From a virus, in the IMG/VR virus record IMGVR_UViG_3300025137_005412, positions 88,042-152,041 of that record: DNA of 64,000 nt; one strand, given 5' to 3'. This document shows, in pieces, positions 36,044 to 54,433 of the stretch. Both the position numbers and the translations under genes were made by a program. Within the stretch, counting starts at the first letter, position 1; each line of letters begins with the position of its first letter. The notes below the pieces were generated by a model that had not been told where the DNA came from, did not search any database, and saw only the letters and a list, made by a program, of their open reading frames with translations.

Positions 36044-36046
36044 TAA

Positions 36047-38215: not shown

Positions 38216-38223
38216 GGTAAATT

Positions 38224-39204: not shown

Positions 39205-39208
39205 CGGA

Positions 39209-39216
39209 AATAAATA
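39209..39216 (+). promoter_or_regulatory. Putative late promoter
   Basis: AATAAATA-atat-ATG(39221). Confidence 0.55.
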
Positions 39217-39220
39217 ATAT

Positions 39221-39994
39221 ATGAATGATTCTGATAACATTATAGAACAAGAATATCCTGAAGATTTTAAATCTGGCGATATTAAAACGTTTGATCGTGA
39301 AGGTACAGAAGTACCTAGAGAAGATATGAAGATTAAACGTGGAGGAGTTCTACAAAATCAAGGTCAAAGACCAGAAGAAATTGATGGTAGTCTTACTGTT
39401 AAAAATGTTCAATGGCTTGATGAAGAAAGAACTGCTGTAAGAGTATCTTTCTTTGATTCAGAAGGTTGGGGAAGAGTAGAAAATCATGCTGCTAACACAA
39501 ATGGTTCAGGTACTTTCTTCTCTAAAGTATTACAACAATACACTATTGACGATATTGATAAAGATACATCAGACTTCTGGAAAGCAGAACAAGATGTTGC
39601 TGAAGAATTACAACAATTCAGAGAATGGAAATCAGCTGGTGGTTTACTAAATACCCACATTGATGAAGATGAACTTCGTATGGAAATTGAAAATGAAGTT
39701 AGAGGTCAAATAGAATTAGAAAATCCTATTGCTCCAGAACCTGAAATTGTAGAAAAAATTGTTGAGAAAGTTGAAGAAATACCAGTTGAAGTTCCTACTA
39801 TATCAGTAGAACATATGGCTAAGAACTATTCTCAAGAAGACTTATTTAGAATGAAAATTGAAGTCTTTGATATCCCTGCTGTAAGAGCTGCTAGCAAAGA
39901 TATTAAATCACGAATCCGTAAAGCTGCTACCCCTGTTGAGTTGTTCTCCATAATTCATGAAGCGAATGTGTCTTTTGAAAATGAACAAGCTTAA
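39221..39994 (+). CDS. Acidic hypothetical protein (possible fibre assembly factor)
   Basis: 257 aa, EKIVEKVEEIPVEVP linker, late-promoter motif upstream. Confidence 0.5.
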   Translation: MNDSDNIIEQEYPEDFKSGDIKTFDREGTEVPREDMKIKRGGVLQNQGQRPEEIDGSLTVKNVQWLDEERTAVRVSFFDSEGWGRVENHAANTNGSGTFFSKVLQQYTIDDIDKDTSDFWKAEQDVAEELQQFREWKSAGGLLNTHIDEDELRMEIENEVRGQIELENPIAPEPEIVEKIVEKVEEIPVEVPTISVEHMAKNYSQEDLFRMKIEVFDIPAVRAASKDIKSRIRKAATPVELFSIIHEANVSFENEQA

Positions 39995-40595
39995 CATCTG
40001 AATTAAATCTATTCTCTTTATTATCATAAAAGTATTCACCAGGATAAGCGTCATTACAATCGTTTAACCATGTAGTTCCTGGATTTAAAATCATTTTACC
40101 AAACCAGGACGATGGAACATATAATAATTCTAGCCTTTCTTTTACTGAATCCTCAACAAAGTACTGTTCTCCATTTATGGGACCATGTGTTATGCCGGCT
40201 CCAATGTAGTGGTTCATCCAGTACTCCGGATCAGAACACAATTTCTTGTAAATATACTTACAGTCTTTGGGATAATACTTGTAAAATGCCCCATTCAGAG
40301 AATAGTCAGTATGAAGAGTATCTTTCCACCAAGCATTTAGACCCAGAAATTGACCTTTTTGAATTGGATATTCAATAAGTTCCATATAGTTATTCATTAA
40401 TAATATATCAATATCAATCACAACAACAGGATCATCAACAGGCCAATCCATAAATGAAATTTTATTCCACTGAAGTTTAAATCTTGAATCTGATTTTCTT
40501 ATAAATGTGATATTAGGTATCTTTGATTTAAGATACTCTTCGTATTCTGGTCCATACTTATCACCTATTCTTACTGCCAGTACTCTTGTACCCAT
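39927..40595 (-). CDS. Glycosyltransferase (GT-A fold, GT8-like)
   Basis: G.KYG..Y, WNK, DxD motif IDIDI, NG, GEQ, KLVHF. Confidence 0.7.
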   Translation of the reverse strand: MGTRVLAVRIGDKYGPEYEEYLKSKIPNITFIRKSDSRFKLQWNKISFMDWPVDDPVVVIDIDILLMNNYMELIEYPIQKGQFLGLNAWWKDTLHTDYSLNGAFYKYYPKDCKYIYKKLCSDPEYWMNHYIGAGITHGPINGEQYFVEDSVKERLELLYVPSSWFGKMILNPGTTWLNDCNDAYPGEYFYDNKENRFNSDVKLVHFQKTHSLHELWRTTQQG

Positions 40596-41353
40596 TCGAA
40601 ATTCTCCGCTGCTTGATGTAGTTCTTGTTGAAAGTGTTTGTTTTTACCATATTCATCTGTATTGAATACACATACTATCTTATCAGATCTATGTCTGTGC
40701 ATTCCAATATCATGTGGCCACTCACAACCACGATTAAATGAATAATAATACTTAGGTGGTACATGATCAAAGTGATCATAATGTTTTCCTGTAATCCAAT
40801 TATCTGAACCACCTGTGTAAATAAAGTAAATTTTTTCTGCGTGTTTTTTTAAATCTTTCCATAATGTTTTGCCTTGGTCATCATTCCAAATCATCATACC
40901 ACCATTACATCTAGCACCATAATTCTTTTTCCAAAATGGTTTCTTTTCATCATCCATATTATGCCACCAAGAACGACCAATCATTGGTTTATCTTTATGT
41001 AATTTTATTATAGGAATTAAACTATTTTGTATTACAACATCTAAATCAAAGAACATTTTTTGACCTTTAATTCCCCATCCATTTGGTTTCCAATAATTTA
41101 GTTTAGGTCTATCCCATAATCTAGGTAAACCTGTAATGAATTCTTTTGATGCGAACATTTCATCTGGTGTTGAGTTTGGTAGGTCAGTAAGAAAAGGTAG
41201 ATGAACTATATTACTATCCATTCCATGTGTGTCATCAGTCTGACAATAAAATGTAAATTCAGCAGGTAAGTTTCTTTTTACCATATTGTATAGTCTATTG
41301 ACATAATCAATACTATATTTAGTTCCCCATCTTACACAATTTACGTGAATCAT
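40571..41353 (-). CDS. Glycosyltransferase (GT-A fold)
   Basis: CVRWGTKYS..YVN.LY.MV.RNL...F.C.TDD, FFDLDVVI, NGGMM.W, YSF, IVCVF. Confidence 0.8.
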   Translation of the reverse strand: MIHVNCVRWGTKYSIDYVNRLYNMVKRNLPAEFTFYCQTDDTHGMDSNIVHLPFLTDLPNSTPDEMFASKEFITGLPRLWDRPKLNYWKPNGWGIKGQKMFFDLDVVIQNSLIPIIKLHKDKPMIGRSWWHNMDDEKKPFWKKNYGARCNGGMMIWNDDQGKTLWKDLKKHAEKIYFIYTGGSDNWITGKHYDHFDHVPPKYYYSFNRGCEWPHDIGMHRHRSDKIVCVFNTDEYGKNKHFQQELHQAAENFEWVQEYWQ

Positions 41354-41997
41354 TTGTATCCTAAAACCATGAATCTTTTATGATAATCATCATAATCATG
41401 GAATTGCCTTTCACCTTTATATACTACTTCTTTAAAATTACATTGTTCAACAAAATCATCTAATGTGTCTACACAATTTATATGTGATGGGTCTTTTGTA
41501 AAGTTTGTTGATTGAAATACACATAGACCTTTAGGTTTAAACTCATCAGTCATAGGATACATGTGTTCACAACTTGTATTAATCCATATATCAGCTTTAA
41601 CTCTAGATAACTTTTTCATTTCCCAGTTTATATCTACATAATGTTTTATAACATTTTTCTTACCATGTAATTTAATGGCAATATCCAATGCTTCTTCATC
41701 AAAATCAACTAAGTGTATTTGATCATTAGGCCAGAAAAATTTAATGATTAATGGAACTGTAAGTGTACCATACCAAGAACCCATTATCCACCATTGAGTA
41801 TTTGCATCGATATCAGCATATACCTTAAGCACATCCATCATCCATGTCTTTGCAATAAATTGATTACGAGAATATGACTTTGCAAAGTCTTCTACACGAT
41901 GTGGATAGTGATGAAGTATATCCTGCATCTGACGACTCCATTCCCATACAGGAAATGGAAATCTTTCCATAATTTCTGTTTGTTCCATCATCGCCAT
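41350..41997 (-). CDS. Class I SAM-dependent methyltransferase-like protein
   Basis: IMGSWYG (motif I), VDFD (motif II), INTSCEHM, QSTN, RFMVLG. Confidence 0.7.
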   Translation of the reverse strand: MAMMEQTEIMERFPFPVWEWSRQMQDILHHYPHRVEDFAKSYSRNQFIAKTWMMDVLKVYADIDANTQWWIMGSWYGTLTVPLIIKFFWPNDQIHLVDFDEEALDIAIKLHGKKNVIKHYVDINWEMKKLSRVKADIWINTSCEHMYPMTDEFKPKGLCVFQSTNFTKDPSHINCVDTLDDFVEQCNFKEVVYKGERQFHDYDDYHKRFMVLGYK

Positions 41998-42671
41998 AGT
42001 TTTTTTATCCAGGGTTCATCAATTTTATCTTGTTTAATAGTATTATAATCAAATAGAATTATACTTGAATTCTCTCTATATTCTTGTTTACATGTCCAAT
42101 ATGAGTAAGTATGTGTCTGATCCAGTGCATAAGTATTAATATCTTTTTTGTGTCTACTTTCAAGCCAGTTATCGATACCTTTATATAGAAACATAATCTT
42201 CTCTCTATTATTTATGAAATCTTCCCATATAAAATGTTTTTTTGTGTACTTATTCCAACACATAATAGATGAGTTTACAGAACAGAATTTATAGTTATCA
42301 CCAATAGTCCATTTCTTTTGCTGATCTAGATCAATCCAGTTTGTGTGTAGTATATTCATAAAATATCTTGGTTGATATAAGAATGTTATGTCATGTTGAA
42401 TTATTATATCGAGATCAAGAAAGATTCCAGATTCAATTGGAAACTTCTCATCAAACATTAACATTTTCCACCACCACTTATCTAACGGTAATTTTGGTAA
42501 TGGTATTATATCAATATTAGGTGAGATACCTGATGGATTCTCCGTCATACAATGTAGTTTATATGGAGCAGATACATTTCTAGATAACATGCTATCTAGC
42601 TTGTTTACAAATTCTGATGTATATTTAGTACCTGATTTAAGGCACACAAAGTCTATTTTCGCTGGCAACAT
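41988..42671 (-). CDS. Glycosyltransferase (GT-A fold)
   Basis: CLKSGTKY, WWWKM..F, FLDLDIII, NSSIM.W, G.DNW, YSY. Confidence 0.8.
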   Translation of the reverse strand: MLPAKIDFVCLKSGTKYTSEFVNKLDSMLSRNVSAPYKLHCMTENPSGISPNIDIIPLPKLPLDKWWWKMLMFDEKFPIESGIFLDLDIIIQHDITFLYQPRYFMNILHTNWIDLDQQKKWTIGDNYKFCSVNSSIMCWNKYTKKHFIWEDFINNREKIMFLYKGIDNWLESRHKKDINTYALDQTHTYSYWTCKQEYRENSSIILFDYNTIKQDKIDEPWIKKLWR

Positions 42672-42688
42672 ATTATAACCTTATACTC

Positions 42689-42728
42689 TATTTATACGGC
42701 TTCTTAACTCGTAAAAACGATATAAATA
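42689..42728. promoter_or_regulatory. Divergent perfect late promoters: - strand 42689-42696 (GT/MTase operon) and + strand 42721-42728
   Basis: TATAAATA on both strands within a 61-nt intergenic region. Confidence 0.7.
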
Positions 42729-42732
42729 ATAC

Positions 42733-43152
42733 ATGTATGCAGTAAAGACTATATTATCAGTCCCTACAGATGAAACAGTGACCGAAGCAGAATTTGGTTT
42801 ATTCGTCTATTCCCATATGACAAGAGATGAACTCTCTGCTCTCTTAGAGTCACAAGGTCCATTCGTTGAAGATAACGAAATGTTATTCTTTATTAGATTA
42901 TTAGATGAAAAGAATAAGAGTCCTGGTGAGTTTACGATGAACACATTTAGAGTCATGAAAGATGAGGACTCAGCTAATAGAATGTTAGCAATAATTGATC
43001 CTATACTTGCTGGTATACCATCTAGTGGTGGTGGTACAGTAGAACATATTGTATCAGAAATTACTTATGATGAGTTTGTAGAATTGCAAGCAAAAGTAGG
43101 TACTAAGTACTACTTCCCCGGTCTTGCGGATGAGTTGGAGAAATACGAGTAG
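42733..43152 (+). CDS. Acidic hypothetical protein
   Basis: 139 aa; perfect TATAAATA 4 nt upstream of the ATG. Confidence 0.6.
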   Translation: MYAVKTILSVPTDETVTEAEFGLFVYSHMTRDELSALLESQGPFVEDNEMLFFIRLLDEKNKSPGEFTMNTFRVMKDEDSANRMLAIIDPILAGIPSSGGGTVEHIVSEITYDEFVELQAKVGTKYYFPGLADELEKYE

Positions 43153-43870
43153 GATCTTCAAATAAAGTTTTACCTTCTTTAATCCATTTCACACCATTAT
43201 TAAAAGCTCCAGCCTTAATTTTAACAGCATTAAAATCATTCTTCTTTATTGGAAAGTCTGTATATCCATTTTCATCATATATAGAACATAAGAAATGCCA
43301 TCTATCTTTTTTAGATTCATTTACTATCTTGTGCATTAGATTTACTCTCATAACATATACAGAACCATCAGCAGGTAAATATACTTCATCAACAATCTTA
43401 TCATCCTCATAGATTCTATGTTTACATTTTTCATTTGTGATTAAAGGTACATGTAATCTACAAGCATATTCACCTTTCAAAGAGTCTGTATGAGTTGTGC
43501 TTTTGCCATCTGCTTTTAGTACTGTGTATCTTGCACGTCTTGGGTTCAGACCAAGATCTACAAGTTTATCTACAAGTTTTTCTGTTTCACCTACACAAAG
43601 TTTAGTTTTCTTGTCATAGTTATATTCAAAATTGATACCTTTATCAACTGCCTTTTGAAAGTCAATCTTACCATCAACCCAAACTTGTTTACCAGACATC
43701 ATACCACCAGTAAATTCTCCAGTATCTGTTAATAGACCAAAACCACCAAACATAGGACCATAACCATGATTATCATAAGTTGCCTTATTCATAGCCTTAA
43801 CGACTTCTAGTTGCTTGCAGATTTTATCTACATCAACTGTAAAATCTAATTTTTGTAGCCACTTATCCAA
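43103..43870 (-). CDS. Aspartyl/asparaginyl beta-hydroxylase-like Fe(II)/2OG dioxygenase
   Basis: RAR...HTD...RLHVPLITN...DGSVY...H...N....R.HF. Confidence 0.8.
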   Translation of the reverse strand: MDKWLQKLDFTVDVDKICKQLEVVKAMNKATYDNHGYGPMFGGFGLLTDTGEFTGGMMSGKQVWVDGKIDFQKAVDKGINFEYNYDKKTKLCVGETEKLVDKLVDLGLNPRRARYTVLKADGKSTTHTDSLKGEYACRLHVPLITNEKCKHRIYEDDKIVDEVYLPADGSVYVMRVNLMHKIVNESKKDRWHFLCSIYDENGYTDFPIKKNDFNAVKIKAGAFNNGVKWIKEGKTLFEDPTRISPTHPQDRGSST

Positions 43871-44603
43871 TTGTATATGTTCCTAAATCTGATTTTAATT
43901 TTGCGTTTACAACTAAATGAGTTCTATTCAATTTAGATGAGAAGTTATAGAATGAATGAAACTTATGACCAGTATTGCAAAGATATAAACTACCGTCAGC
44001 TTTCAAATAATAAGGCTGATCTAAAAAATACATGATAGACCATTGATGTGATACTATTGGTAAATGTATCCTCAATGATTTAGGTTCATCTACATGCTCT
44101 AGACAAAAATGTCTTGGATATGTTTTTAATAATCTTGCTCTATATAAATGTAAATCTGGAAATTGCTCTTGACACAAATCAAAGAATGGTTGAAACATCT
44201 TACCGGCTTCGTTTAGTTTACTTCTATCGTATTGCCAACTATCAAAGTGTTCAGTACCTACTTTAAGATAGTCTTTATAATTAATATCTTTATAATTACC
44301 TAGATCTTTTGAACCCGAAGCTTGATTTACACCATCAGAATATGGATTATCTTCATCAAAATATTGTAAAGCAAGACCTTCATATGTGTCTTGATTATCT
44401 TTTTTGTAGAAAGTAAATTTAGATTCAACTTCTTTTAAAATTTCTTTATACATTTTAATGTCAAGGCTGGCCTTGATCTTGATAATATCAAAATTTCTAG
44501 TTGTTTCTAATAATTCTTTAGCGGTATTGAAATCGCCTTTTTCCATAAGTTCCCTATTGAGTTGTAGGTTTGCCAGGTAGTTGTTGTTTATTAAACATTC
44601 CAA
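43863..44603 (-). CDS. Aspartyl/asparaginyl beta-hydroxylase-like Fe(II)/2OG dioxygenase
   Basis: RARLL...HVD...RIHLPI...DGSLY.CNT...HSFYN....RTHLV. True start may be a little downstream. Confidence 0.8.
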   Translation of the reverse strand: MECLINNNYLANLQLNRELMEKGDFNTAKELLETTRNFDIIKIKASLDIKMYKEILKEVESKFTFYKKDNQDTYEGLALQYFDEDNPYSDGVNQASGSKDLGNYKDINYKDYLKVGTEHFDSWQYDRSKLNEAGKMFQPFFDLCQEQFPDLHLYRARLLKTYPRHFCLEHVDEPKSLRIHLPIVSHQWSIMYFLDQPYYLKADGSLYLCNTGHKFHSFYNFSSKLNRTHLVVNAKLKSDLGTYTIG

Positions 44604-45288
44604 CTACTATCTCATCTATATTTATGTAATCTGGTAAGGTCATTATGAATTCAGCAATGATAGGCAAATCTTCTCTACCGATTGGAAAGAAAGAATGAAA
44701 TGGTATCTTTCCTCTGTGGTAGTTTTCTTTTAAGTAGTAATCTAAATCTGCTTCTTCTACATGACCTTGATTTATCTTTATTCTTCTTGCTAAGTCAGCA
44801 TCAACCATCTCTGTCTTTACAATACCAGGAACTAAATTTACTACATGAACCGGTCTATTTTTCGACATATTAACATTGTTTGCAAACTCATAGAATGCTT
44901 TCTTACTAGAATAGTAATAAGATCTTTCTCTTGACATATCTTGCCAGCCGTACATTCTGATTCCATAACTAACTACATTAAAGATATGAGTATATGGCAA
45001 CATCTTATCATAGAATCCTTCAAATATATGACCTGCTGCAATAGTATTAAGTTGATATGTATCTTCAAAGTTATCTCTAAAACCACCTGCATTATTAATA
45101 ACTACATTAGGTTGGTGTTTCGCAATCAAGTCATACCTAAAATCTTTGTCAGTGATATCTCCTGGATCTGTAATCCATTCTTTCTCAGTTCTTGCAGTTG
45201 TTATAAGATCATACTTATCTTTATAATGATCAACAAATGATTTTCCTATTCCGGAAGATGCACCTGTTATTAACATTTTCTTAGCCAT
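44554..45288 (-). CDS. Short-chain dehydrogenase/reductase
   Basis: TGASSGIG, INNAG, YxxxK (YYSSK), PGIVKT. Confidence 0.9.
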   Translation of the reverse strand: MAKKMLITGASSGIGKSFVDHYKDKYDLITTARTEKEWITDPGDITDKDFRYDLIAKHQPNVVINNAGGFRDNFEDTYQLNTIAAGHIFEGFYDKMLPYTHIFNVVSYGIRMYGWQDMSRERSYYYSSKKAFYEFANNVNMSKNRPVHVVNLVPGIVKTEMVDADLARRIKINQGHVEEADLDYYLKENYHRGKIPFHSFFPIGREDLPIIAEFIMTLPDYINIDEIVVGMFNKQQLPGKPTTQ

Positions 45289-46256
45289 TATTTACCCTCT
45301 AGTTGTTTCATTAAATCATTGTACTCAATTTTTACTTCTTGTGAGTAGTCTTTATATTCTTCCATTAAAACTGGTCTTAGTTGTTTATCCATTTTACCTA
45401 AATTTTCAAATCCATCATATTTTTTCTTTTGAGAAATACCTGGAAAATACTTATTGTATATCTCTGTCTTTGTACTTGTATTAGATAACTTTCCAAATCT
45501 TTCATTATTTACTAACTTCACTGTAGTACTTTCAGATAAAAATGAATGCATAATTTCTGGTGTGTATTGAAAAAATCCAGGTATGCTTTGAATTTTTTGT
45601 CTTACAGCAAATCTATACCAACTATTAATCTTTTCTCTCTCATAGAAATACCATGGTGCTGGTTCAAAATCATCTTTATCATTTCTTCTTATATCACCAT
45701 CAACTAAATCATAATATTGTTTTACATTACCGTGAGCTAAATAGCATTCACCCATACCCATAACAGGTATGCCATCAGAGAGTCTTTCCATTAATAACAT
45801 GTGTGGTAAAATTCTAGGTGTAATTGATTTAGAAATATTTGCGTACTTCAAACCTTCTTCATGTAGCCACTGCATTATTGGTACTTCATGCAAACAATAC
45901 TCTAAATTGTTATTTTCGCAGAATATAATAGCATGTGCTATATCATGTATATTAAGATTAGGATCATATGTCATGATATTAATATTGACTTTAATGTTTT
46001 GATCTATAAAAGATCTTACCATTATTTCTGATTCAGAACCACCACTATACATAAGTTCAATTGATGTACCCATCATATATGCATAATCATTTATTTTTTG
46101 AGCTACATCATAACATTCGGATTTAAAATCCATTGGTGTACGAGATACTTTACCAAATTCAACAGTGTATCTATCTTGAGGTTTCACTCTTTCAGTAAAC
46201 CATCTCTTATTATAGCCCCACTTAAAGTGGTTGTTATGTGTGAACTGGTGTTCCAT
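45288..46256 (-). CDS. PP-loop (adenine nucleotide alpha-hydrolase, asparagine-synthase-like) enzyme
   Basis: LMYSGGSES PP-loop variant; C-terminal K..Y......KKYDGFE. Confidence 0.6.
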   Translation of the reverse strand: MEHQFTHNNHFKWGYNKRWFTERVKPQDRYTVEFGKVSRTPMDFKSECYDVAQKINDYAYMMGTSIELMYSGGSESEIMVRSFIDQNIKVNINIMTYDPNLNIHDIAHAIIFCENNNLEYCLHEVPIMQWLHEEGLKYANISKSITPRILPHMLLMERLSDGIPVMGMGECYLAHGNVKQYYDLVDGDIRRNDKDDFEPAPWYFYEREKINSWYRFAVRQKIQSIPGFFQYTPEIMHSFLSESTTVKLVNNERFGKLSNTSTKTEIYNKYFPGISQKKKYDGFENLGKMDKQLRPVLMEEYKDYSQEVKIEYNDLMKQLEGK

Positions 46257-47196
46257 AATAGGTATTATACCCTTTTATAATAGGTTTATTTGTGTTTCTC
46301 TTACTCACGTCTATAGAAACAGTGTCTTCATTCATACTAAAGAATCCATTTGTTTTATGTTGCATCTCTAACATTTCATTTCTACAGAATTTTTCATAAA
46401 ACTTATGACGTAATATGTTATGTTTAACATACTCGGTTTTATTTTCTGGTTGCAATGTAAAATCTTTCATACGATCTTCTTCTGGCATCCAGCTTTCGTT
46501 CTTTAAATTAAAGTATTCAGTTGTATTTGATTTTATTTTCTTTATATCATCAAATTCAATAAAGTCTACATTAAGTGATGATAGTTCGTATATCAGATAA
46601 TATGATCTTATATAGAAAGACAGATACCATTCAATACTTCTACCTTCTATTTCTGGAGGAACAAGAGAAAGCTTTGACAATCCCATTCCTTCAGGTACAT
46701 CATGCCACGTATGAGGATCATCAAACTTTTCATCTTTATAAAAATGATATTTGTTTTTAAATATACTCCATGCAAAACTAAATGCACCATCAATAAAATT
46801 CTTTCTCCAAGTCATTTTAATATCATTATCAAATAACTTCTCTAGAAAATATGGATATTTTGATAAATGAAATAAATGATTGAGATTAATCTTCATAAGA
46901 GATTTATCAAATCTAAAATTAAATTTCTCTATAACAAATTTGATATATTCTGTAAGATAACCGTTGTTTTCCATGTATATACCTGCAATTAAGTTTTCAA
47001 AATCTTTAGTATCATGTTGCTTTGCAGATTTTAATCTAGGAGGATTATCCCAGTGATAGTCTCTTACTTTCGAATGAGGCCAAATAAACTCATGCATAAA
47101 ACCTATCTGTTCACCATTTAATACTCTTTCTCTATATCTTTGTTGCATATAGAACGTAGAACCACTGCGTGGCAATGATAAGATAACTTCACTCAT
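46234..47196 (-). CDS. Sulfotransferase-like protein
   Basis: N-terminal 5'-PSB loop LPRSGST, HE.F, 3'-PB R.N......S. Confidence 0.6.
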   Translation of the reverse strand: MSEVILSLPRSGSTFYMQQRYRERVLNGEQIGFMHEFIWPHSKVRDYHWDNPPRLKSAKQHDTKDFENLIAGIYMENNGYLTEYIKFVIEKFNFRFDKSLMKINLNHLFHLSKYPYFLEKLFDNDIKMTWRKNFIDGAFSFAWSIFKNKYHFYKDEKFDDPHTWHDVPEGMGLSKLSLVPPEIEGRSIEWYLSFYIRSYYLIYELSSLNVDFIEFDDIKKIKSNTTEYFNLKNESWMPEEDRMKDFTLQPENKTEYVKHNILRHKFYEKFCRNEMLEMQHKTNGFFSMNEDTVSIDVSKRNTNKPIIKGYNTYYGTPVHT

Positions 47197-48239
47197 ATTG
47201 TTGTAAAACTTGCACCAAACATTTCAGGTCTAAATAGCGGCTTTCCTTTTTTCTTTTTAGTTTCATCAATGTAAAGTTTAGTACCATCTTCACTAAGGTT
47301 TAGTAAGCCTTTAGATTCTGCACAGACTTCTTTCATTCTCTTCACAGCTTTTACTTTTAGCTTATCTACGTGTTTAATATGTTCTTCTACAAATTGATTT
47401 TTGTTTTCAAATCTCTTAGGATTTCTCATCCAGTATGGATCTGGAATATACTTTTTAAATTCATAATCACCCTTTACAAGGTTATAAAACTCTTCTTCAT
47501 TGTTTTCAATATGAGATATCTCTTTCATTTCTAAAATATTAAAGTCTACTTCATCAGTAAACAAATGATATATTTCACCATAAGATTGATCGATAGTCAT
47601 CTTTGCAAGAAATGGATTTGCCCACACTTGTTTTACTTTCATACCACCGTGAACCCAAGTACTGGTATCTTCTAGCTCTTCATCATTATAAAAATGAAAC
47701 TTATCGTGTAATGCACCCCATACAAATGAAGTGTATGCCTTAAGCCAATCTTCTCGATATAAGAAAATCCAATTATAAGAATCTAAGATATTCATACCGC
47801 ATTTCTTATCAGCAATATAACCTGTCACTAAATCCATAGGAAATGCTTTCATATGAAGATTATCAAGATCATATTCTTTTAACTTATTTACTCTTTCAGC
47901 TATAATCTCTAAAGCCATATCAGCTTCTTCACCCTTATCATATGCATCTGTGCTACCAGGAAAGCCATAAGATTTTCTAAAAAAGTATCCAGCCCAAGCA
48001 TCTTTATCGTTATAGTTCTTAATTCTCGGTAGCTCGTCCCAGTAGAATTCATATATACCGTTTCTGATTCTAAAGAATTCATCTAGAAATCCAATCGGTT
48101 GTGTTGGATTATTAATTACTGCTTGACGATATATTTGTCTACTTAAAAATGTAGTACCACATCTACCCATACCAGAAATTGCTACAGGCTTGTTTGTTTT
48201 ATTGAGTGCTAATACGTCGTTAGTTGTCTTGATTTTCAA
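47193..48239 (-). CDS. Sulfotransferase-like protein (paralogue of the neighbour)
   Basis: MGRCGTT loop, EFF, FLYREDW....TS. Shares IGF..EF, W+.LPR+K and K+HFY.DE..+D..TW segments with 46234-47196. Confidence 0.6.
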   Translation of the reverse strand: MKIKTTNDVLALNKTNKPVAISGMGRCGTTFLSRQIYRQAVINNPTQPIGFLDEFFRIRNGIYEFYWDELPRIKNYNDKDAWAGYFFRKSYGFPGSTDAYDKGEEADMALEIIAERVNKLKEYDLDNLHMKAFPMDLVTGYIADKKCGMNILDSYNWIFLYREDWLKAYTSFVWGALHDKFHFYNDEELEDTSTWVHGGMKVKQVWANPFLAKMTIDQSYGEIYHLFTDEVDFNILEMKEISHIENNEEEFYNLVKGDYEFKKYIPDPYWMRNPKRFENKNQFVEEHIKHVDKLKVKAVKRMKEVCAESKGLLNLSEDGTKLYIDETKKKKGKPLFRPEMFGASFTTI

Positions 48240-48834
48240 GCCAATCTCCTATGTAAGTATAATTTTTAATGACCATATTTGCTGGCCATTTTCTATTTCC
48301 TGTAAGAAGCTTAAATCCAGTCCATTTAGTTTCAGTATTCTTATCTACAAATTCTTCAATACCAATAACCCATTTACCATCACCTGCATTATTAAGTAAT
48401 TTTCTTTTAGCTTTTTGAATTATTGATTTATTAGTAAGTGCATCCAATGAGGTTTCTACATCTGAGAATGCAAATCCCTGTTTAATACCGTTATCTAACA
48501 TCCAAGAAAAATGTTTTCTCCAGATATCTTCTGTGATAGGCATGATTCGTATACCTAAATTTTCTTTTGATACATGAATTGTAGTTGTACATCTTGGCAT
48601 GAGCTTCCATTTGTATACTCCACATATACATAATAGCTCATCTTTATCTACATATCCCCATAAGAAATATGGTTCATTAGGATCAAAGTACTTATCAATA
48701 TACTCATCACTCCATATATCCTCAAAATCTATGGAGTCTTTATCAATACCGCTGTGTGTTTTTCTTAATGATAAAAGTCTCTTTACTTGATCTTTCCATT
48801 TATCATCTAAAATCTTAACTTTTTCCAAACTCAT
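48220..48834 (-). CDS. GNAT-fold acyltransferase-like protein
   Basis: LWGYVDKDELL.I.G...W..MP pattern; resembles the adjacent gene. Confidence 0.4.
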   Translation of the reverse strand: MSLEKVKILDDKWKDQVKRLLSLRKTHSGIDKDSIDFEDIWSDEYIDKYFDPNEPYFLWGYVDKDELLCICGVYKWKLMPRCTTTIHVSKENLGIRIMPITEDIWRKHFSWMLDNGIKQGFAFSDVETSLDALTNKSIIQKAKRKLLNNAGDGKWVIGIEEFVDKNTETKWTGFKLLTGNRKWPANMVIKNYTYIGDWLENQDN

Positions 48835-49498
48835 TATCTTTTTCCTGTAAAGGTTTATATTCTACTTTCAGATATTCTTTAAATCTTTCATGTTGTATAT
48901 GAGGTTTGATCTTAGCAGACTTTATTGCTAGATCAGTTGGATGGGTACGATAACCCATTATAACTTTTTCGTAATCAAATTTTGGCTCTTCACCAGCAGG
49001 AATTACATTCTCTATAAACACATTATATCTTTTGAAAGTGCTACTATAATTATACCAAAATTGCTCTCTTCTATTCCAACCTTTTGTACTTGTGACCCAG
49101 TAGAATTGTGTATATCCATATTGCTCAGCATCTAGTACTGCCAAATCAAGCAGTTCAGAAGTCATTTTGGCAGCCTCTCGGTAGCTTTTTAGACTCGGAC
49201 ATGTTATCATATTGCCAACATACCAAGATGGCATCCTCGATGTCGAGAAGCGTTGTGTCAGTATAACCATAAGCTCATTATTAGAGAAATAACCAAAGGC
49301 TCTACCTTTATTAACTTCATTAGGTAAACCATTGACCCATTTGAAATTCATATGTTCTTCAAGGAACAAGTTATATTGCTCATCTACATTTTCATTAGTT
49401 CTAGCTTGTATTGGATTTTTAGACAGTTGAATGTATCTACGCATCATAAGATCGTAGATTTGATCCTTGTCAAGTGTTGTAAGTTCTCGCATAGTCAT
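48815..49498 (-). CDS. GNAT-fold acyltransferase-like protein
   Basis: MRELT..D, AFGYF.N.EL, MPSWY, LLDLAV..AE..GY..FY. Confidence 0.45.
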
Positions 49499-49508
49499 TG
49501 TATATAGA

Positions 49509-49516
49509 TATTTATA
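49509..49516 (-). promoter_or_regulatory. Perfect late promoter for the GNAT-sulfotransferase-SDR-hydroxylase operon
   Basis: TATAAATA on the - strand, 10 nt before ATG 49498. Confidence 0.65.
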
Positions 49517-49764
49517 TGCCTTATGTAGTTGATAATAGATGTATTGGATGCAAGCACCTCACATGTGTAGACGTATGTCCTGTGGACTGCTTCTTTGAAG
49601 GTGATGATATGTTAGTAATCGATCCTGAAATATGTATTGATTGTGGAATTTGTGTACCTGAATGCCCAGAAGATGCTATAATAGATGCTACTGAATCTGA
49701 AGAATGGGCAAAATTCAATGCAGAGAAGTCACTGATATGGCCAAACATCACACCAAAGAAATAA
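49516..49764 (+). CDS. fdxA: Ferredoxin (FdxA-like dicluster type)
   Basis: MPYVV...[18 protein letters not shown]...[18 protein letters not shown] and W..FN....WPNIT tail. Start taken at ATG 49516. Confidence 0.9.
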
Positions 49765-49767
49765 ATA
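49760..49767 (+). promoter_or_regulatory. Putative late promoter for the desaturase
   Basis: AATAAATA-atat-ATG(49772). Confidence 0.5.
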
Positions 49768-49771
49768 ATAT

Positions 49772-50572
49772 ATGCTAGAATTATTCAAAACATTTACACG
49801 CCCAAGATCTGAATGGTTTCCATATCAGCACATTCTATTACTCGCAGGGACAATATACGCATTAACTTTACCAGTTGCTACTGGATGGTACATCGCAGCA
49901 GGATTAATGTGGTTCACTATTATTGCCCTCGGAATAAATTTTACGTACCACAGATTACTTTCTCATAGATCTTTTAAGACCTATAAGATAGTAGAGTATG
50001 CTTTTTCCTTACTTGGCATACTCGCAAACACAGGCTCGCCACTAGCGTGGGTAATGATGCATAGACAACATCACCATTATACGGACAAGGGTTATGATCC
50101 ACATAGTCCTCACGAACATGGATTTAAAATCCTATTTTCGTTCTATGATGATAAATTGTTTAGAGATAAACCAAGTGCCGCTTTAATGTATGGTCGTCAT
50201 ATGATTAGAGATAAAGTACAGGTTGTTTTTCACGATTATTATCATTTAATTATATTGTCCTACTATGCGCTACTAGCGACTTTTGGCGGCCTACACGCAC
50301 TCTTATTTCTAGGTATTGTTCCTGGATTTTTATCAGTGTTCAGTACAAACATGAGTAATTACTGGAACCACATGAGTGGTTATAGAACTTATGATACTGG
50401 AGAAGATAGTAAGAATACACCATGGATGTTGCCAATAGCATTTGGTGAGAACTGGCATAATAACCATCATCATAGACCAGGTAATGCATATCCTGGTGAA
50501 AAATGGTGGGAGGTAGATCCAGTCAAACCATTTATCATGATGTTGAGGACAGATGAAAACAAAACTCAATAA
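49772..50572 (+). CDS. Membrane fatty-acid (delta-9-type) desaturase
   Basis: Three His boxes HRLLSH, HRQHH, HNNHH; DPHSP; GENWHNNHH; WWEVDP; TM helices. Confidence 0.92.
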   Translation: MLELFKTFTRPRSEWFPYQHILLLAGTIYALTLPVATGWYIAAGLMWFTIIALGINFTYHRLLSHRSFKTYKIVEYAFSLLGILANTGSPLAWVMMHRQHHHYTDKGYDPHSPHEHGFKILFSFYDDKLFRDKPSAALMYGRHMIRDKVQVVFHDYYHLIILSYYALLATFGGLHALLFLGIVPGFLSVFSTNMSNYWNHMSGYRTYDTGEDSKNTPWMLPIAFGENWHNNHHHRPGNAYPGEKWWEVDPVKPFIMMLRTDENKTQ

Positions 50573-51569
50573 AAACTTTAATGAATTTCTAGATGAGGCT
50601 TCAAAACCTAAATGGTTGAAAAATGATTTAGGTAAAATGAGAAAGCGTGGTCGTATCTCTGTTCTTGTAGATAAAATCAAGAATGGTGAAGAGATACTTA
50701 CAACAAAAGGTTTAGTTGTACTAGATAAAAAAATTGAAGTTAATGGTGTAGAACATGATGTAAAATCCATGCAACAAACACTCGAAGATCCTAAATCTAC
50801 AAATACAAAAGTTAAATTTTTTGTTAAGGGTAAAGCAATAAGTATTGATGATACCTTTAAGACACCGGAATTTGGTGGTAGAGGTGCTGGCTCTGGAGAG
50901 GCGGCAGAAGATGCATATCTCACAAGTTTTAGAAACCATTTACTACAAACAATTGAATCTGAAGGTGCACCATATATTACTATTATTATAAAAGGTAGAC
51001 AAGAAAAAGTCACTGACATAATTAAGACACCTCCATATCGTGGTGATAGAAATCCAAAATCAGACTTTTCATTAATTGGTTTAGATGGTTCTACTCAAGT
51101 AGGTTTTATATCTCATAAAGCTGGTTCTGGACCAAAAGATTTTCAACAGTATGGTGGAATATCAAAAGACAAACAACTAGCTACTAATTCAAAAGTACAA
51201 GACTTTGCACAAGCAGTAAAAGATGCTAGACCAGATGGATTAGTATCAGGAGATAAATTAACAAGAAAAGTTAAGGATCCTAAAGTAAAACAACTTACTT
51301 TATATGGTCCAGAAGCTGGTAAGAAACCATCACCATATAATGTAGATGAGTTTCATCAAGGTCAGATGACTTTAAAAGGTGCAAGAGGCGTGTATAAAAT
51401 TATATCTACACATAAAGTTGTAAGACCTAAAGTTCCTAAAGGTGGTTATGAACCTACGTATGTTGCAAGATATAATAAACGTACACAATCTGTAGGTGAT
51501 ATTAAAATTGATAATGCTAGATTAGGTGTTTTTGCTAAAGATCAGTATACAAATACTACTAAAGTTTAA
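50553..51569 (+). CDS. Basic hypothetical protein, possible PD-(D/E)xK nuclease fold
   Basis: E...PKSDF......FISHK...FQQYGG pattern; FNEFLDEA near the N-terminus. Confidence 0.45.
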   Translation: MKTKLNKNFNEFLDEASKPKWLKNDLGKMRKRGRISVLVDKIKNGEEILTTKGLVVLDKKIEVNGVEHDVKSMQQTLEDPKSTNTKVKFFVKGKAISIDDTFKTPEFGGRGAGSGEAAEDAYLTSFRNHLLQTIESEGAPYITIIIKGRQEKVTDIIKTPPYRGDRNPKSDFSLIGLDGSTQVGFISHKAGSGPKDFQQYGGISKDKQLATNSKVQDFAQAVKDARPDGLVSGDKLTRKVKDPKVKQLTLYGPEAGKKPSPYNVDEFHQGQMTLKGARGVYKIISTHKVVRPKVPKGGYEPTYVARYNKRTQSVGDIKIDNARLGVFAKDQYTNTTKV

Positions 51570-52306
51570 TAGATTGCATGTTCAAAATCTAAGAACTTCT
51601 TATACTCAGATTCTAATTTTCCAAATATTCTTAATTGTATTCTTTTTGTTCCCGTTTCGGTAGTACAATGTGGATGTGAATCATCAAAGTGCCATACTTT
51701 CCATTTAGATTCATCAATCAATTTTTCACCTGTGTCTGTTTCAACATATAGATTAGCACCACCTGATAATATATTTAGTGTTATAGAACCATTACCATCA
51801 GCATAATATTTTTGATTCATTTTCTTTCCAGAATCTGCATGTATTACACCAATTGATGGTGGTGTTTGTATAATACATCTTACAGTAGTCACATATTCAA
51901 ATGGTAGCATTTCAATAATACTTTTTGTATATGGAATTTGCATATCATCTCTCCATACCCATGGATGTTGATGTTCTACCCATAACGGTATTGTTCTGTG
52001 ATAATCCCAACTTTCATATTTAGATCTTTCATCTCGATATGTAAGATTTGTCATCCAAAAAGTATCCATACCTTTCTTAATAGATCTGTGTGTATCATTA
52101 GAATCTTCATAATGTATTACATCTTTTGTTTTACTAAACTTTTCATCTTCAAATGACATAACACCTTTCCATTTAGATTGACCATCTTCAAATGTAGTTG
52201 TAGCTAATACACTGTGTTTATCAATGTTATTTGCAATAAGTTCTTCGGCAATCTGATGTTGACTAAAATTTATTTGGTTTTTAAGAGGAGCGAATACTGG
52301 AATCAT
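51566..52306 (-). CDS. Fe(II)/2OG dioxygenase (Asp beta-hydroxylase-like)
   Basis: VR......HAD...FDDSHPH......RIQL. Confidence 0.7.
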   Translation of the reverse strand: MIPVFAPLKNQINFSQHQIAEELIANNIDKHSVLATTTFEDGQSKWKGVMSFEDEKFSKTKDVIHYEDSNDTHRSIKKGMDTFWMTNLTYRDERSKYESWDYHRTIPLWVEHQHPWVWRDDMQIPYTKSIIEMLPFEYVTTVRCIIQTPPSIGVIHADSGKKMNQKYYADGNGSITLNILSGGANLYVETDTGEKLIDESKWKVWHFDDSHPHCTTETGTKRIQLRIFGKLESEYKKFLDFEHAIY

Positions 52307-52860
52307 AATTTTTTTATTGCAACATATTGTGATGTACCTTTTACTAACATTGCGCCAGGCATAAATTTAAGGTTCATATAAGTTTTAGAATTTTTCATAC
52401 CGAATGCTGTTGCTTTACCATCACTTATTCTTTTAAGAAACTTATATAACCATTCATTATAATCATTAAACGTAAACCAAGCCGCAGTACATTTTTGTTT
52501 TTTAGCATATTTGAATTGTAATGGAAATAAATGATTACCATGTACATATTTAGTTCTATATTCAGGTACTGTCCAACATCTACAACCACAAACCATTACT
52601 TTATTATTTAGTTTATAACAAGCTGAAACACCAATAAGTTCATCCTTTTTATATGCTAGAAATATTTGCTCATATTCTTTTGACTTGAATAACTTATAGA
52701 ATAATGTCTCTGGTTTAGATTTCCAATTTGTCACAGACATATTTACTGAAGGTGGTAATCCTTCTTTCTCAGCTTCTTGACAAAACTCAATTAACTCTAA
52801 TAATACATCAGGTGGTATCTTGTCTGGACTATATTTAGCCAGGTATAAGTTCTTTATCAT
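52303..52860 (-). CDS. GNAT acetyltransferase-like protein
   Basis: ELIGVSA, RCWTVPEYRT, AWFTFN.YN. Confidence 0.6.
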   Translation of the reverse strand: MIKNLYLAKYSPDKIPPDVLLELIEFCQEAEKEGLPPSVNMSVTNWKSKPETLFYKLFKSKEYEQIFLAYKKDELIGVSACYKLNNKVMVCGCRCWTVPEYRTKYVHGNHLFPLQFKYAKKQKCTAAWFTFNDYNEWLYKFLKRISDGKATAFGMKNSKTYMNLKFMPGAMLVKGTSQYVAIKKL

Positions 52861-53416
52861 CGTGCCATTTTCTCAATGTGCTCCATGGATGATATACTGC
52901 TATCTGACAAGCGAATCTTTCTTTATCACCATTCTCTACAGAATGTGTATGTCCTTTAGTATTCATCATTGAAGCATGATTGTGTTTATATTCTAATAAT
53001 TTTTTACCATCTTTCCAAAACAGTGTTGGTGCAGCATCATCCGTTAATGGTATATGTATTGCACCTTGTCTGTTTGAGTCCTTGTGTTTACCTATCTTTA
53101 AATTAATAGGAAATTTAGAGAAAATTACTGGTGAGTACTCAGGAGAGTTTAATAACACTCTAATATTTCCATTCAATTGATTAATTATACTCTTAACAGG
53201 CTCTAATTTTTTGTAATCTATATGGCTTTTTCTATAATAACCTGCAAAGCTCGAGAATAATTTATCAAAAGGAAATGTCATGACCGATGTAGCAGCATTT
53301 ATATCATGAGATGGTAGAGACCATTCACCATATTGAGGATCATTCATTATCTCCAATAAGCCTTCTTTATCAATTACCAAATCTGGAAGTGGTATTACAA
53401 TATCTAATTCGTCCAA
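52835..53416 (-). CDS. Fe(II)/2OG dioxygenase
   Basis: HKD..R.GAIHIPL...APTLF...NT...HSVEN...ERF..Q. Confidence 0.75.
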   Translation of the reverse strand: MDELDIVIPLPDLVIDKEGLLEIMNDPQYGEWSLPSHDINAATSVMTFPFDKLFSSFAGYYRKSHIDYKKLEPVKSIINQLNGNIRVLLNSPEYSPVIFSKFPINLKIGKHKDSNRQGAIHIPLTDDAAPTLFWKDGKKLLEYKHNHASMMNTKGHTHSVENGDKERFACQIAVYHPWSTLRKWHDDKELIPG

Positions 53417-54030
53417 AATGTACCGTCCTTGACCATATCTACTACTTTATTATATGGTTCATATAAGCTAAATTGTAAACAATACCTATCTGGTTGATCT
53501 GTATTATCTACACCATGAACCTCTAAAATATTTAATATAGCTGGACAGCTGTGAACGTGAGCATACTTTGGTTGGGTGTCTTTTCTATCTTCGAAGAATA
53601 GTGTTGGTGCAGCATCAAAGTCAAGTGGAAAATGAATTGCACATTTACGATTTATATCTTTATGAGGTCTTAAATTAAAACCTGCTGGAATCTTTACAAA
53701 AGCACAATTGTGAGGTTCAATAGGTAAATTAATTCTATCTTTTAAACTCTTTATATAGGGATCATCTAAAAACTCAGGGCATTTCATTTCATAATAACCT
53801 TCAAGACCAGGAAATATAGGTTTTCCATTAATCATTCCCAACATTTTCATCATTGGGTCTTCAATTTCTTTTTGTTTTGATGGATATAAATCTTCTTTAG
53901 ATTCTAATTTACGAGCGAATGGTGTCCACATTTCAAAGCTTGCGGGCATATTATTCATACATTCTTTCAGAGTATTTTGATCATAATCAAACTCTTGTAT
54001 ACTATAACAGAACTCTTCTACATTCCTCAT
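53404..54030 (-). CDS. Fe(II)/2OG dioxygenase (paralogue of the neighbour)
   Basis: PHKD..RKCAIHFPL..DAAPTLF...N...VHGVDN....RY.LQ. Start taken at ATG 54030 (TATAAGTA 4 nt upstream). Confidence 0.75.
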   Translation of the reverse strand: MRNVEEFCYSIQEFDYDQNTLKECMNNMPASFEMWTPFARKLESKEDLYPSKQKEIEDPMMKMLGMINGKPIFPGLEGYYEMKCPEFLDDPYIKSLKDRINLPIEPHNCAFVKIPAGFNLRPHKDINRKCAIHFPLDFDAAPTLFFEDRKDTQPKYAHVHSCPAILNILEVHGVDNTDQPDRYCLQFSLYEPYNKVVDMVKDGTFWTN

Positions 54031-54034
54031 ACTA

Positions 54035-54060
54035 TACTTATACCTGATTTTGAATAAATA
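54035..54060. promoter_or_regulatory. Divergent late promoters: TATAAGTA (-, 54035-54042, dioxygenase operon) and AATAAATA (+, 54053-54060, gp16)
   Basis: Each lies exactly 4 nt from its ATG. Confidence 0.6.
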
Positions 54061-54064
54061 ATAC

Positions 54065-54433
54065 ATGACTGAAGAAAAGAAATTAGAAAATGAATTAGTT
54101 GAAACTAAAGATAGCGTTGCTAAATTAGTAAAACATCGATCAGATGACTATGAATACGCCAGGGAAGTCCTATACGCAGCTAGCGAGAGACTTCAAGACG
54201 TACTTGATAGTGCCGTTCAACTCGCGCAGGAGTCAGAGCACCCGCGAGCCATTGAAGTAGCATCTAATACAGCACAAACTTTAGGTAATATTGCAGGCCA
54301 ACTTATGGATCACCACATTCGTACAGAAAAAATTAATAAAGGTGCATCACAAAATGAGAAGTCTGTGACTAATAATAATCTCAATGTAAAAGTAAATACA
54401 AAAGATTTATTAGAACTCCTAGGGAAAGAGTAA
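54065..54433 (+). CDS. gp16: Terminase small subunit gp16
   Basis: DYEYAR, A.ESEHPRAIEVA, NNNL....T.DL. Directly before gp17. Confidence 0.9.
   Translation: MTEEKKLENELVETKDSVAKLVKHRSDDYEYAREVLYAASERLQDVLDSAVQLAQESEHPRAIEVASNTAQTLGNIAGQLMDHHIRTEKINKGASQNEKSVTNNNLNVKVNTKDLLELLGKE

Follow-up and report, generated by a model that had tools for sequence, protein, structure and literature searches.

A conserved, late-type enzyme island in a pelagimyophage-like marine phage and its possible action on membrane-bound acyl compounds of the infected cell

Enzyme genes lying within the virion-assembly module of a T4-like phage raise the question of what their products modify, the virion itself or a component of the infected cell. 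This question was addressed for an island of genes in the last 64 kb (64,000 nt, hereafter the window) of the 152-kb IMG/VR contig IMGVR_UViG_3300025137_005412 (85% complete; 33% G+C), whose source is an uncultured, pelagimyophage-like marine T4-like myovirus. An earlier note, made from the window's letters, had placed about 20 genes between the fibre genes and gp16 and had proposed that they write a modification on the tripeptide motif DS[D/E] of virion proteins, with remodelling of host lipopolysaccharide (LPS) or lipids as the alternative. The results showed that 20 tightly packed open reading frames (ORFs), g01-g20, do occupy positions 39927-54066 with almost no spacers, and that they form two separable conserved cassettes, A (g01-g04) and B (g05-g20). 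A role in writing DS[D/E] was not supported; remodelling of host LPS or lipids fits the evidence better, with a substrate that we infer. We tentatively favour the view that the island's enzymes act late in infection on an acyl compound bound to the membrane of the infected cell.

The island contains three minus-strand runs (g04 to g01, g13 to g06 and g20 to g17), in which reading frames overlap by 1-50 nt, and the plus-strand genes g05, g14, g15 and g16 are interspersed among them. The genes are as follows (window coordinates).

g01, 39927..40595, minus strand: GT8-like glycosyltransferase-family protein, last gene of the g04 operon
g02, 40571..41353, minus strand: GT8-like glycosyltransferase-family protein
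g03, 41350..41997, minus strand: candidate class-I methyltransferase-fold protein, weak support
g04, 41988..42671, minus strand: GT8-like glycosyltransferase-family protein, first gene of the operon
g05, 42733..43152, plus strand: acidic 139-aa protein, no family match
g06, 43103..43870, minus strand: Fe(II)/2-oxoglutarate (2OG) dioxygenase of the Asp/Asn beta-hydroxylase (LpxO/OlsC) family
g07, 43863..44603, minus strand: dioxygenase, paralogue of g06
g08, 44554..45288, minus strand: short-chain dehydrogenase/reductase (SDR)
g09, 45288..46256, minus strand: stand-alone AsnB-type PP-loop amide synthetase
g10, 46234..47196, minus strand: sulfotransferase-like protein, additional paralogue of g11
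g11, 47193..48239, minus strand: Stf0/Sulfotransfer_3-like putative sulfotransferase
g12, 48220..48834, minus strand: GNAT-fold protein, paralogue of g13
g13, 48815..49498, minus strand: GNAT-fold protein, first gene of the g13-g06 operon
g14, 49498..49764, plus strand: FdxA-type ferredoxin, likely start at 49516
g15, 49772..50572, plus strand: predicted Delta-9 (DesC/SCD-type) membrane fatty-acid desaturase
g16, 50553..51569, plus strand: basic 338-aa protein, pathway membership uncertain
g17, 51566..52306, minus strand: Asp/Asn hydroxylase-like dioxygenase
g18, 52303..52860, minus strand: probable GNAT-like protein, weak support
g19, 52835..53416, minus strand: cupin/dioxygenase-like protein
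g20, 53404..54066, minus strand: cupin/dioxygenase-like protein, probable true start at 54030

Conservation of the island and its relation to the DS[D/E] motif

Genes g05-g20 are syntenic upstream of gp16/gp17 in nine related contigs (71-91% TerL identity), which rules out a hypervariable, recently acquired block. Two genes are additions in the source phage: g10 has no separate orthologue in the relatives, and g14 gave no tblastn match there. Gene g18 is conserved in eight relatives. Farther away, phage contig L083 carries a PP-loop/g13-like fusion together with GNAT, desaturase, Sulfotransfer_3, SDR and five Asp_Arg_Hydrox genes, and phage contigs L084, L086 and L088 carry subsets of the cassette-B core. 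Cellular g09 homologues come nearly all from Bdellovibrionota (metagenome-assembled genomes; L095-L111 and L082), where they lie beside homologues of g06, g07, g08, g15, g17 and g18 and where B12-radical SAM, HTTM and GNAT genes are also present. Bdellovibrionota make no virions yet possess the core, which shows that it can do without virion proteins. The 3.3-kb locus L098 is very close to the phage genes and may be a mis-binned phage contig. For cassette A, at least 155 viral stretches contain a relative of g01, in most cases accompanied by g02 and/or g03. The complete genome of Pelagibacter phage Mosig EXVC030M encodes homologues of g01, g02/g04, g03, g06/g07, g15 and g18, counted as seven of the 20 island gene families.

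The enrichment of DS[D/E] in the phage is real, with 189 copies observed versus 31 expected, and DSD is the most over-represented tripeptide in the proteome (147 versus 16.3 expected, 9-fold). The copies are concentrated in structural proteins (window positions 10306-38215, 56384-58177 and 60331-61323), and none was found in the island enzymes. There is no flanking consensus around the motif, and serine codon use inside it follows genome-wide usage. A DNA-level cause of the DSD bias was ruled out, given the ordinary serine codons and the specificity of the motif for frame and protein class. Judged from the sequences, DS[D/E] is selected at the protein level.

A motif so extreme and so placed is what speaks for virion decoration, in which the island enzymes would modify the Ser or Asp of DS[D/E] on tail, fibre and neck proteins during assembly, by glycosylation, hydroxylation, acylation or sulfation. 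The island also adjoins fibre-like genes and has late promoters, and every contig that combines close island orthologues (g01 identity of at least 59%) with structural genes is motif-rich. Phage glycosyltransferases do glycosylate the virions of mycobacteriophages, according to Freeman et al. (2023), as cited in PMC12801897. However, motif and island genes were found to vary largely independently, an outcome that the earlier note had named as refuting its proposal. The enrichment marks one clade, the phages whose TerL is at least about 64% identical to that of the source phage, and neither Mosig nor the cyanophage-like loci show it; Mosig contains 18 copies of DS[D/E] versus 25.5 expected despite its island homologues. 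The DS[D/E] ratio is no higher than about 2 in 71 of the 80 viral loci with a g01 relative; 63 of these 71 pass the g01 hidden Markov model (HMM), most of them also containing g02 and/or g03 homologues. No enrichment was found in the distant carriers of the cassette-B core L083, L086 and L088 or in the Bdellovibrionota loci. Conversely, the motif-rich contig G001 (14.7x) has none of the island families on its 31-kb fragment, and G002 (6.4x) has the glycosyltransferase cassette and one g06-like, one g07-like and one g15-like gene without the PP-loop core (g09) on its 69.5-kb fragment; these comparisons are to be read with both contigs being fragments and with distant homologues possibly having other specificities.

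The island enzymes thus occur without the motif, and the motif occurs without the PP-loop core, so the writer role proposed in the earlier note is not supported. Two further points count against virion decoration: it is hard to see what a conserved integral-membrane desaturase would do to soluble virion proteins, and the glycosyltransferase/sulfotransferase cluster of Mosig lies beside nrdB and RuvC. This cluster (124832-130666) comprises two methyltransferases, two glycosyltransferases and a sulfotransferase in a nucleotide-metabolism neighbourhood that also includes glutaredoxin. On balance, we consider modification of the DS[D/E] residues by the island enzymes improbable. The DS[D/E] bias, the strongest tripeptide bias in the proteome, still needs its own explanation.

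Late-type promoters of the island

A late-promoter motif ahead of each of the three minus-strand operons had been reported in the earlier note. All three were recovered where it had placed them, and they proved to be non-random and conserved in relatives. The promoters of the island are as follows.

42689..42696, minus strand: TATAAATA, late-type promoter of the g04-g01 operon, intergenic, 17 nt upstream of the g04 ATG
42721..42728, plus strand: TATAAATA, late-type promoter of g05, position-locked N4-ATG
49509..49516, minus strand: TATAAATA, late-type promoter of the g13-g06 operon, 10 nt upstream of the g13 ATG
49760..49767, plus strand: AATAAATA, late-type promoter of g15, position-locked N4-ATG
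54035..54042, minus strand: TATAAGTA, late-type promoter variant of the g20-g17 operon, inside the longest g20 ORF

The motif NATAAATA is the late promoter of cyanomyoviruses (PMC2984593). In the phage genome, TATAAATA is depleted (6 copies versus 12.2 expected) and five of its six copies are upstream of gene starts, and the form NATAAATA-N4-ATG occurs 17 times genome-wide versus 2.4 expected. With a spacing of N3-5, 13 of the 18 matches fall exactly at ORF starts. The N4-ATG form heads g05, g15, gp16, gp18 and fibre/baseplate genes, and TATAAGTA-N4-ATG fits the alternative g20 start at 54030. A late motif precedes 5 of 103 genes in the replication half (1-68 kb), versus 15 of the 66 genes outside it; for the island the count is 6 of 21. 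Relatives retain the motif at the start of the g13, g15, g05 and g19 units, with the spacer around it diverged: it was present at the g13 and g15 heads in six of the six relatives checked and upstream of the g05 orthologues in L027, L011 and L008, and TATAAGTA-N4-ATG heads the operon orthologous to g20-g17 in L005, L006 and L022. Because the motif is enriched, conserved at orthologous unit heads and rare in the replication half, late-type transcription of the island is well supported at the sequence level. Sigma-70-type promoters were not enriched (84 found versus 92.6 expected) and were rejected for the island.

Every island unit has a late-type promoter except the ferredoxin gene g14, which interrupts the pair of back-to-back late promoters of g13 and g15 (about 40 nt apart in relatives) and has no late motif of its own. 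Position-locked NATAAATA sites were also located at window positions 10881 (minus strand), 17429, 34619, 39221, 42733, 49772, 54065 and 62277 and at genome positions 22381, 68418, 70415 and 83546. Since NATAAATA sits only 4 nt before the ATG, this arrangement implies that many late mRNAs would have very short 5' leaders or none. The earlier inference that late promoters point to enzymes acting on the virion was not supported: the same motif heads the gene for a CsgF homologue (curli type VIII secretion; genome 70415-70930, outside the window) and the desaturase gene g15, so that late timing alone does not mean virion action.

Predicted enzymes and their candidate substrate

Single-sequence Pfam searches recognized 5 of the 20 proteins: g06 (Asp_Arg_Hydrox), g08 (SDR), g14 (ferredoxin), g15 (FA_desaturase) and, weakly, g18 (GNAT). 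The 15 unassigned proteins gave nothing in Pfam at E values up to 10, and megablast of the island against cultured phages gave no match. Further comparisons upheld nearly all of the enzyme labels proposed earlier, those of the glycosyltransferases, the methyltransferase, the sulfotransferases and the GNAT protein g18 by weak or indirect signals.

At the centre of cassette B is g09 (322 aa), whose PP-loop reads SGGSES; the consensus of its homologues is LFSGGxDSEV, with S71, G72 and G73 invariant across 59 homologues. Its AlphaFold2 (AF2) model (pLDDT 93) is closest to AsnB (1ct9; VIA Z 15.6, root-mean-square deviation 3.4, 251 aligned residues), followed by beta-lactam synthetase (1mbz; Z 15.1) and carbapenam synthetase (Z 13.3). 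Together with TsnB9 these enzymes span Z 15.6-11, and LarE, NadE, TilS and QueC-type enzymes reach at most 9.9. Because g09 starts with MEHQF and has no N-terminal class-II glutaminase domain and no Cys2, it appears to be a relative of the AsnB synthetase domain rather than an AsnB orthologue. No match was obtained with tblastn of g09 and g06 against cultured phages, or with PDB sequence-profile searches using shallow alignments of g09, g10/g11, g13 and g17.

The AF2 model of g13 (pLDDT 85) matched GNAT acetyltransferases in Foldseek (E 1e-7, target TM-score 0.6-0.75), including AAC(6')-Ii, RimI and SpeG, and g12 is homologous to g13 (hhalign 96%). The g18 match to Pfam Acetyltransf_1 is weak (E 0.0066; 17.1 bits, below the 20.7 cut-off), and hhalign with shallow alignments did not link g18 to g12/g13. 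These GNAT-fold proteins may be transferases of groups other than acetyl. Homologues of g09 are fused to GNAT domains or, C-terminally, to g13-like domains (proteins of about 535 aa; hhalign 95-96%), which ties g09 and the GNAT/g13-type proteins together in function.

Among the dioxygenases, g06 alone reached the gathering score of Pfam Asp_Arg_Hydrox (PF05118; 33.9 bits versus a cut-off of 22.6), and g07, g17, g19 and g20 were tied in by other links. The g07 protein is homologous to g06 (hhalign 96%), and the nearest named cluster of g17 in the Atlas, a protein-language-model resource, is PF05118 (score 0.96, 203 shared features); hhalign with shallow alignments gave no link of g17 to the other island dioxygenases. 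Proteins g19 and g20 are paralogues (hhalign 99%), the link from g20 to g06 is weak (49%), and g19 has a weak CDO_I cupin match. In the family alignments, the HxD...H iron-binding triad is kept in all five proteins, as HtD, HVDEP (g07), IHADSG (g17) and kHKD with a conserved downstream His; g17 has the invariant IHADSG...WHFDD..PHC, and g19 has HKD...H.v.N. Orthologues of g06 in the distant carriers of the cassette-B core matched with E 1e-44 to 1e-53. Against the LpxO equivalog (NCBIfam NF033391), g06 scored 12.8 bits (E 0.045, cut-off 500), and it has no hydrophobic segment.

The reductase g08 matched Pfam adh_short (42.3 bits versus 26.6) and the FabG-like phrog_3142, and its N-terminal ITGASSGIG (residues 7-15) satisfies the TGxxxGxG motif. 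The g14 protein matched NCBIfam FdxA_Protbact (1.9e-31) and Fer4 Pfam families; the FdxA alignment begins at residue 7, so the start of g14 is likely at 49516. The g15 protein matched Pfam FA_desaturase (46.1 bits versus 29.7) and, below the cut-off, the NCBIfam DesA family (5e-21). With the His boxes HRLLSH, HRQHHH and HNNHHH and hydrophobic blocks at residues 21-59 and 159-194, g15 is by its sequence features a predicted Delta-9 DesC-type membrane desaturase.

The g10 and g11 proteins are paralogues (hhalign 99%) without a Pfam or PDB sequence match. Their Atlas neighbours are the Stf0/Sulfotransfer_3 clusters PF09037/PF13469 (score 0.96, 188 shared features for g11), and g11 has an invariant R26-x-G28 in a loop resembling the 5'-phosphosulfate-binding (5'-PSB) loop, plus invariant R162/S171, compatible with motifs that bind 3'-phosphoadenosine 5'-phosphosulfate (PAPS). 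The g10 and g11 HMMs did not match the Sulfotransfer_3 protein of L083. Stf0, after which the nearest clusters are named, sulfates trehalose in sulfolipid synthesis, in keeping with a lipid-directed role. No family was found for g05 in Pfam or PHROG searches, and g05 is conserved in four relatives (42-82% identity). The g16 protein matched phrog_13937 (1.7e-40), with homologues in Synechococcus phages S-PRM1 and S-CAM9, Sinorhizobium phiM12-type phages and Stenotrophomonas DLP_6. It was not found in the close relatives L008, L011 and L027, suggesting that g16 may be mobile or lie outside the pathway.

In cassette A, g01, g02 and g04 are mutually homologous (hhalign with deep alignments, 95-100%). 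The g02-g04 paralogy reaches 99.5-100%, and the links of g01 (97.6% to g02, 95.6% to g04) were seen only with deeper alignments. A D-x-D is invariant in this family. The g04 protein matched the glycosyltransferase family phrog_1962 (3e-9) and, by tblastn, an annotated glycosyltransferase of Mosig. Glycogenin, a GT8 enzyme, gave the sole PDB profile matches of the family (weak, E 0.8), and PF01501 matched one of 33 family members (weak, E 0.01). Nothing was found by a Pfam search of g01, by other PDB profile searches of the family or among precomputed Pfam labels on g04 homologues. In g03 a glycine-rich ILGSWYGT, an acidic D-x-D and DIIINTSCEHM are conserved, and weak signals, namely profile matches to spermidine synthases (E 0.035) and PF01564 on one homologue, hint at a class-I S-adenosylmethionine-dependent methyltransferase fold.

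We propose that cassette B is a tailoring pathway around g09, which would activate a carboxylate with ATP and form an amide, working with g12, g13 and g18 as acyl or amino transferases of GNAT fold. The g14 ferredoxin would feed the desaturase g15, and the FabG-like reductase g08, the five LpxO/OlsC-family hydroxylases and the two Stf0-like sulfotransferases would surround this core. Cassette A would add three GT8-like sugar transferases and a methyltransferase-fold protein. The likeliest substrate would be a membrane-bound fatty-acyl compound of the infected cell, for example an amino-lipid, a glycolipid or a lipid-A-like molecule. Late in infection this compound may gain an amide bond, a double bond and hydroxyl groups, and possibly sulfate or sugar as well. 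Such envelope remodelling might serve to exclude other phages or to keep the membrane stable before lysis.

Several observations favour a lipid substrate. Phage DesC-type desaturases act on host lipids, as shown experimentally for the Delta-9 viral fatty-acid desaturases (vFADs) of cyanophages, which desaturate C16 lipids (PMC5776448); among the island proteins only the DesC-type desaturase has a demonstrated phage counterpart. The characterized hydroxylase relatives LpxO, OlsC and OlsD act on lipid acyl chains (PMC12971839). The same gene set, made up of PP-loop, GNAT, AspH, desaturase, SDR and sulfotransferase genes, recurs in L083 and in Bdellovibrionota. Several points weigh against this view and hold it to a tentative one. 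Nothing in the island was recognized as an acyl carrier protein, an acyl-CoA ligase or a lipid-anchoring acyltransferase, and membrane segments were predicted in g15 only, the other 19 of the 20 proteins looking soluble. The glycosyltransferase, methyltransferase and sulfotransferase assignments come from the weak or indirect signals described above. Peptides and small molecules are also substrates of AsnB-fold enzymes, and the AspH enzymes of eukaryotes are protein hydroxylases. The island lies inside the structural module under late promoters, and a virion-directed system would look alike.

The structural relatives of g09 bear on two other explanations. Its nearest ones include the natural-product enzymes beta-lactam synthetase, carbapenam synthetase and TsnB9, as would fit a diffusible secondary metabolite or a modified peptide, lipopeptide-like or akin to ribosomally synthesized and post-translationally modified peptides (RiPPs), with an amide-built scaffold that is then hydroxylated, sulfated and glycosylated. 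The B12-radical SAM and HTTM proteins in the bacterial versions of the cluster agree with this, and the acidic, conserved g05 with its own late promoter could be scaffold or substrate. However, no precursor peptide, nonribosomal peptide synthetase (NRPS), polyketide synthase (PKS) or exporter was found, g05 has no recognizable family, and the desaturase and LpxO-family hydroxylases point to acyl chains; we regard this explanation as unlikely.

The second is nucleic-acid modification, with phage DNA or host tRNA as the target that a PP-loop enzyme of TilS/QueC/MnmA type, the dioxygenases and the glycosyltransferases would hypermodify. Some g09 homologues have weak QueC or MnmA Pfam matches, TilS and MnmA are among the g09 Foldseek matches, and a T4 AGT-like DNA glucosyltransferase is encoded elsewhere in the genome. 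Yet g09 fits the AsnB class with Z 15.6 versus at most 9 for tRNA and QueC enzymes, the dioxygenases belong to the AspH/LpxO family and not to TET/JBP or AlkB, late expression is atypical for DNA-modification genes, and the membrane desaturase is left unexplained. This explanation is accordingly judged very improbable.

The phage, related systems and biological meaning

The TerL of the phage is about 53% identical to cyanomyovirus terminases and 51% to that of Mosig. The island lies between gp15 plus the fibre-like genes and gp16, a site equivalent to the cyanomyovirus g15-g18 region, which takes 4-14 metabolic genes (PMC2984593). The neighbouring genes, all identified by PHROG matches, are as follows (window coordinates).

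32637-33737: neck protein (Hc2)
33737-34603: tail-sheath stabilizer gp15
34619-39994: fibre- or baseplate-like genes
from 54065: gp16
from 54434: gp17
from 56384: tail sheath
from 60331: Ad2 adaptor

CsgF is a hallmark of pelagimyophages (Zaragoza-Solas et al., PMC7029224), and because the genome encodes it, the host is probably a SAR11 bacterium. A 474-aa gene at genome 68418, next to the CsgF gene, also has a late-type promoter, and the 68418/70415 pair constitutes the pelagimyophage hallmark operon. Three other genes were noted outside the window. A 442-aa protein (genome 65337-66665, minus strand) matched Pfam AGT, the T4 DNA alpha-glucosyltransferase (7e-29), which suggests that a SAR11-type phage may have DNA with glucosylated hydroxymethyl-cytosine. 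A 630-aa protein (genome 74834-76726) has a CHASE2 sensor domain fused to an adenylate/guanylate cyclase domain, and a 505-aa radical SAM protein (genome 47631-49148) lies in the replication/early half.

Glycosyltransferases, Asp/Asn hydroxylases, 2OG oxygenase arrays and desaturases are known cargo at this place in marine T4-like genomes (PMC3037559, PMC7029224, PMC2984593, PMC5776448), and the host-recognition cluster of pelagimyophages carries glycosyltransferases, GT8 being the commonest, and Asp/Asn beta-hydroxylase (PMC7029224). Like the cyanomyovirus g15-g18 region and the pelagimyophage cluster, the island places auxiliary genes in the virion module next to tail-fibre genes. Unlike the hypervariable g15-g18 region, g05-g20 stay syntenic in relatives down to about 71% TerL identity, and a core of AsnB-type synthetase, GNAT and sulfotransferase is not described for the regions in PMC2984593 and PMC7029224. 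Literature searches found no description of a fixed cassette around an AsnB-type synthetase and GNAT-fold proteins, and a search combining Bdellovibrio with the island enzyme families found nothing relevant.

The individual enzymes have closer parallels. Like g15, the cyanophage vFAD is DesC-type, has three His boxes and comes from a marine T4-like phage; in the source phage the desaturase has a ferredoxin neighbour. The vFAD has been treated as a single auxiliary gene of phages infecting cyanobacteria, whereas g15 is a fixed cassette member with a position-locked late promoter in a phage whose host is probably SAR11. With AsnB, beta-lactam synthetase, carbapenam synthetase and TsnB9 (1ct9, 1mbz, 1q19, 7ylz), g09 shares the fold (Z 11-15.6 over about 250 residues) and SGGxDS, but it has only 7-12% identity to them, lacks the glutaminase domain and is often fused or adjacent to GNAT-fold proteins. 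The OlsB/OlsC/OlsD, LpxO and cerilipin systems follow the same logic of an amide-linked lipid, 2OG-dependent hydroxylation and ATP-dependent head-group amidation; the taurine amidation of ornithine lipid that yields cerilipin is ATP-dependent, and its enzyme is unassigned (PMC12971839). No OlsB, OlsA or OlsF orthologue was detected in the island, and the island hydroxylases have no membrane segments, so this likeness is one of function and not of membership. Mycobacteriophages likewise have glycosyltransferases near structural genes, and in the work of Freeman et al. (2023, PMC10527164), as cited in PMC12801897, their capsid and tail glycans are demonstrated, whereas any such modification in the source phage would be hypothetical and its glycosyltransferase cassette is widespread in phages without the candidate sequon DS[D/E].

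Few biological entities in the ocean are as abundant as SAR11 and its phages. If the 152-kb contig is representative, a conserved pathway of 16-20 genes takes up about a tenth of the phage genome; being large, strongly conserved and late-type, it can be expected to affect the fitness of the phage. Should the pathway indeed rewrite lipids of the host membrane or envelope, the interaction of infected cells with other phages and grazers and their handling of nutrient stress would be altered. A bolder and rather doubtful proposal is that cassette B produces lipids of a class not yet described, which would be amide-linked, hydroxylated and sulfated. Both aquatic phages and the predatory Bdellovibrionota would then employ the cassette to remake the envelope of the cell being consumed. 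The occurrence of one module in phages and predatory Bdellovibrionota points to a shared, unstudied tool for exploiting Gram-negative cells.

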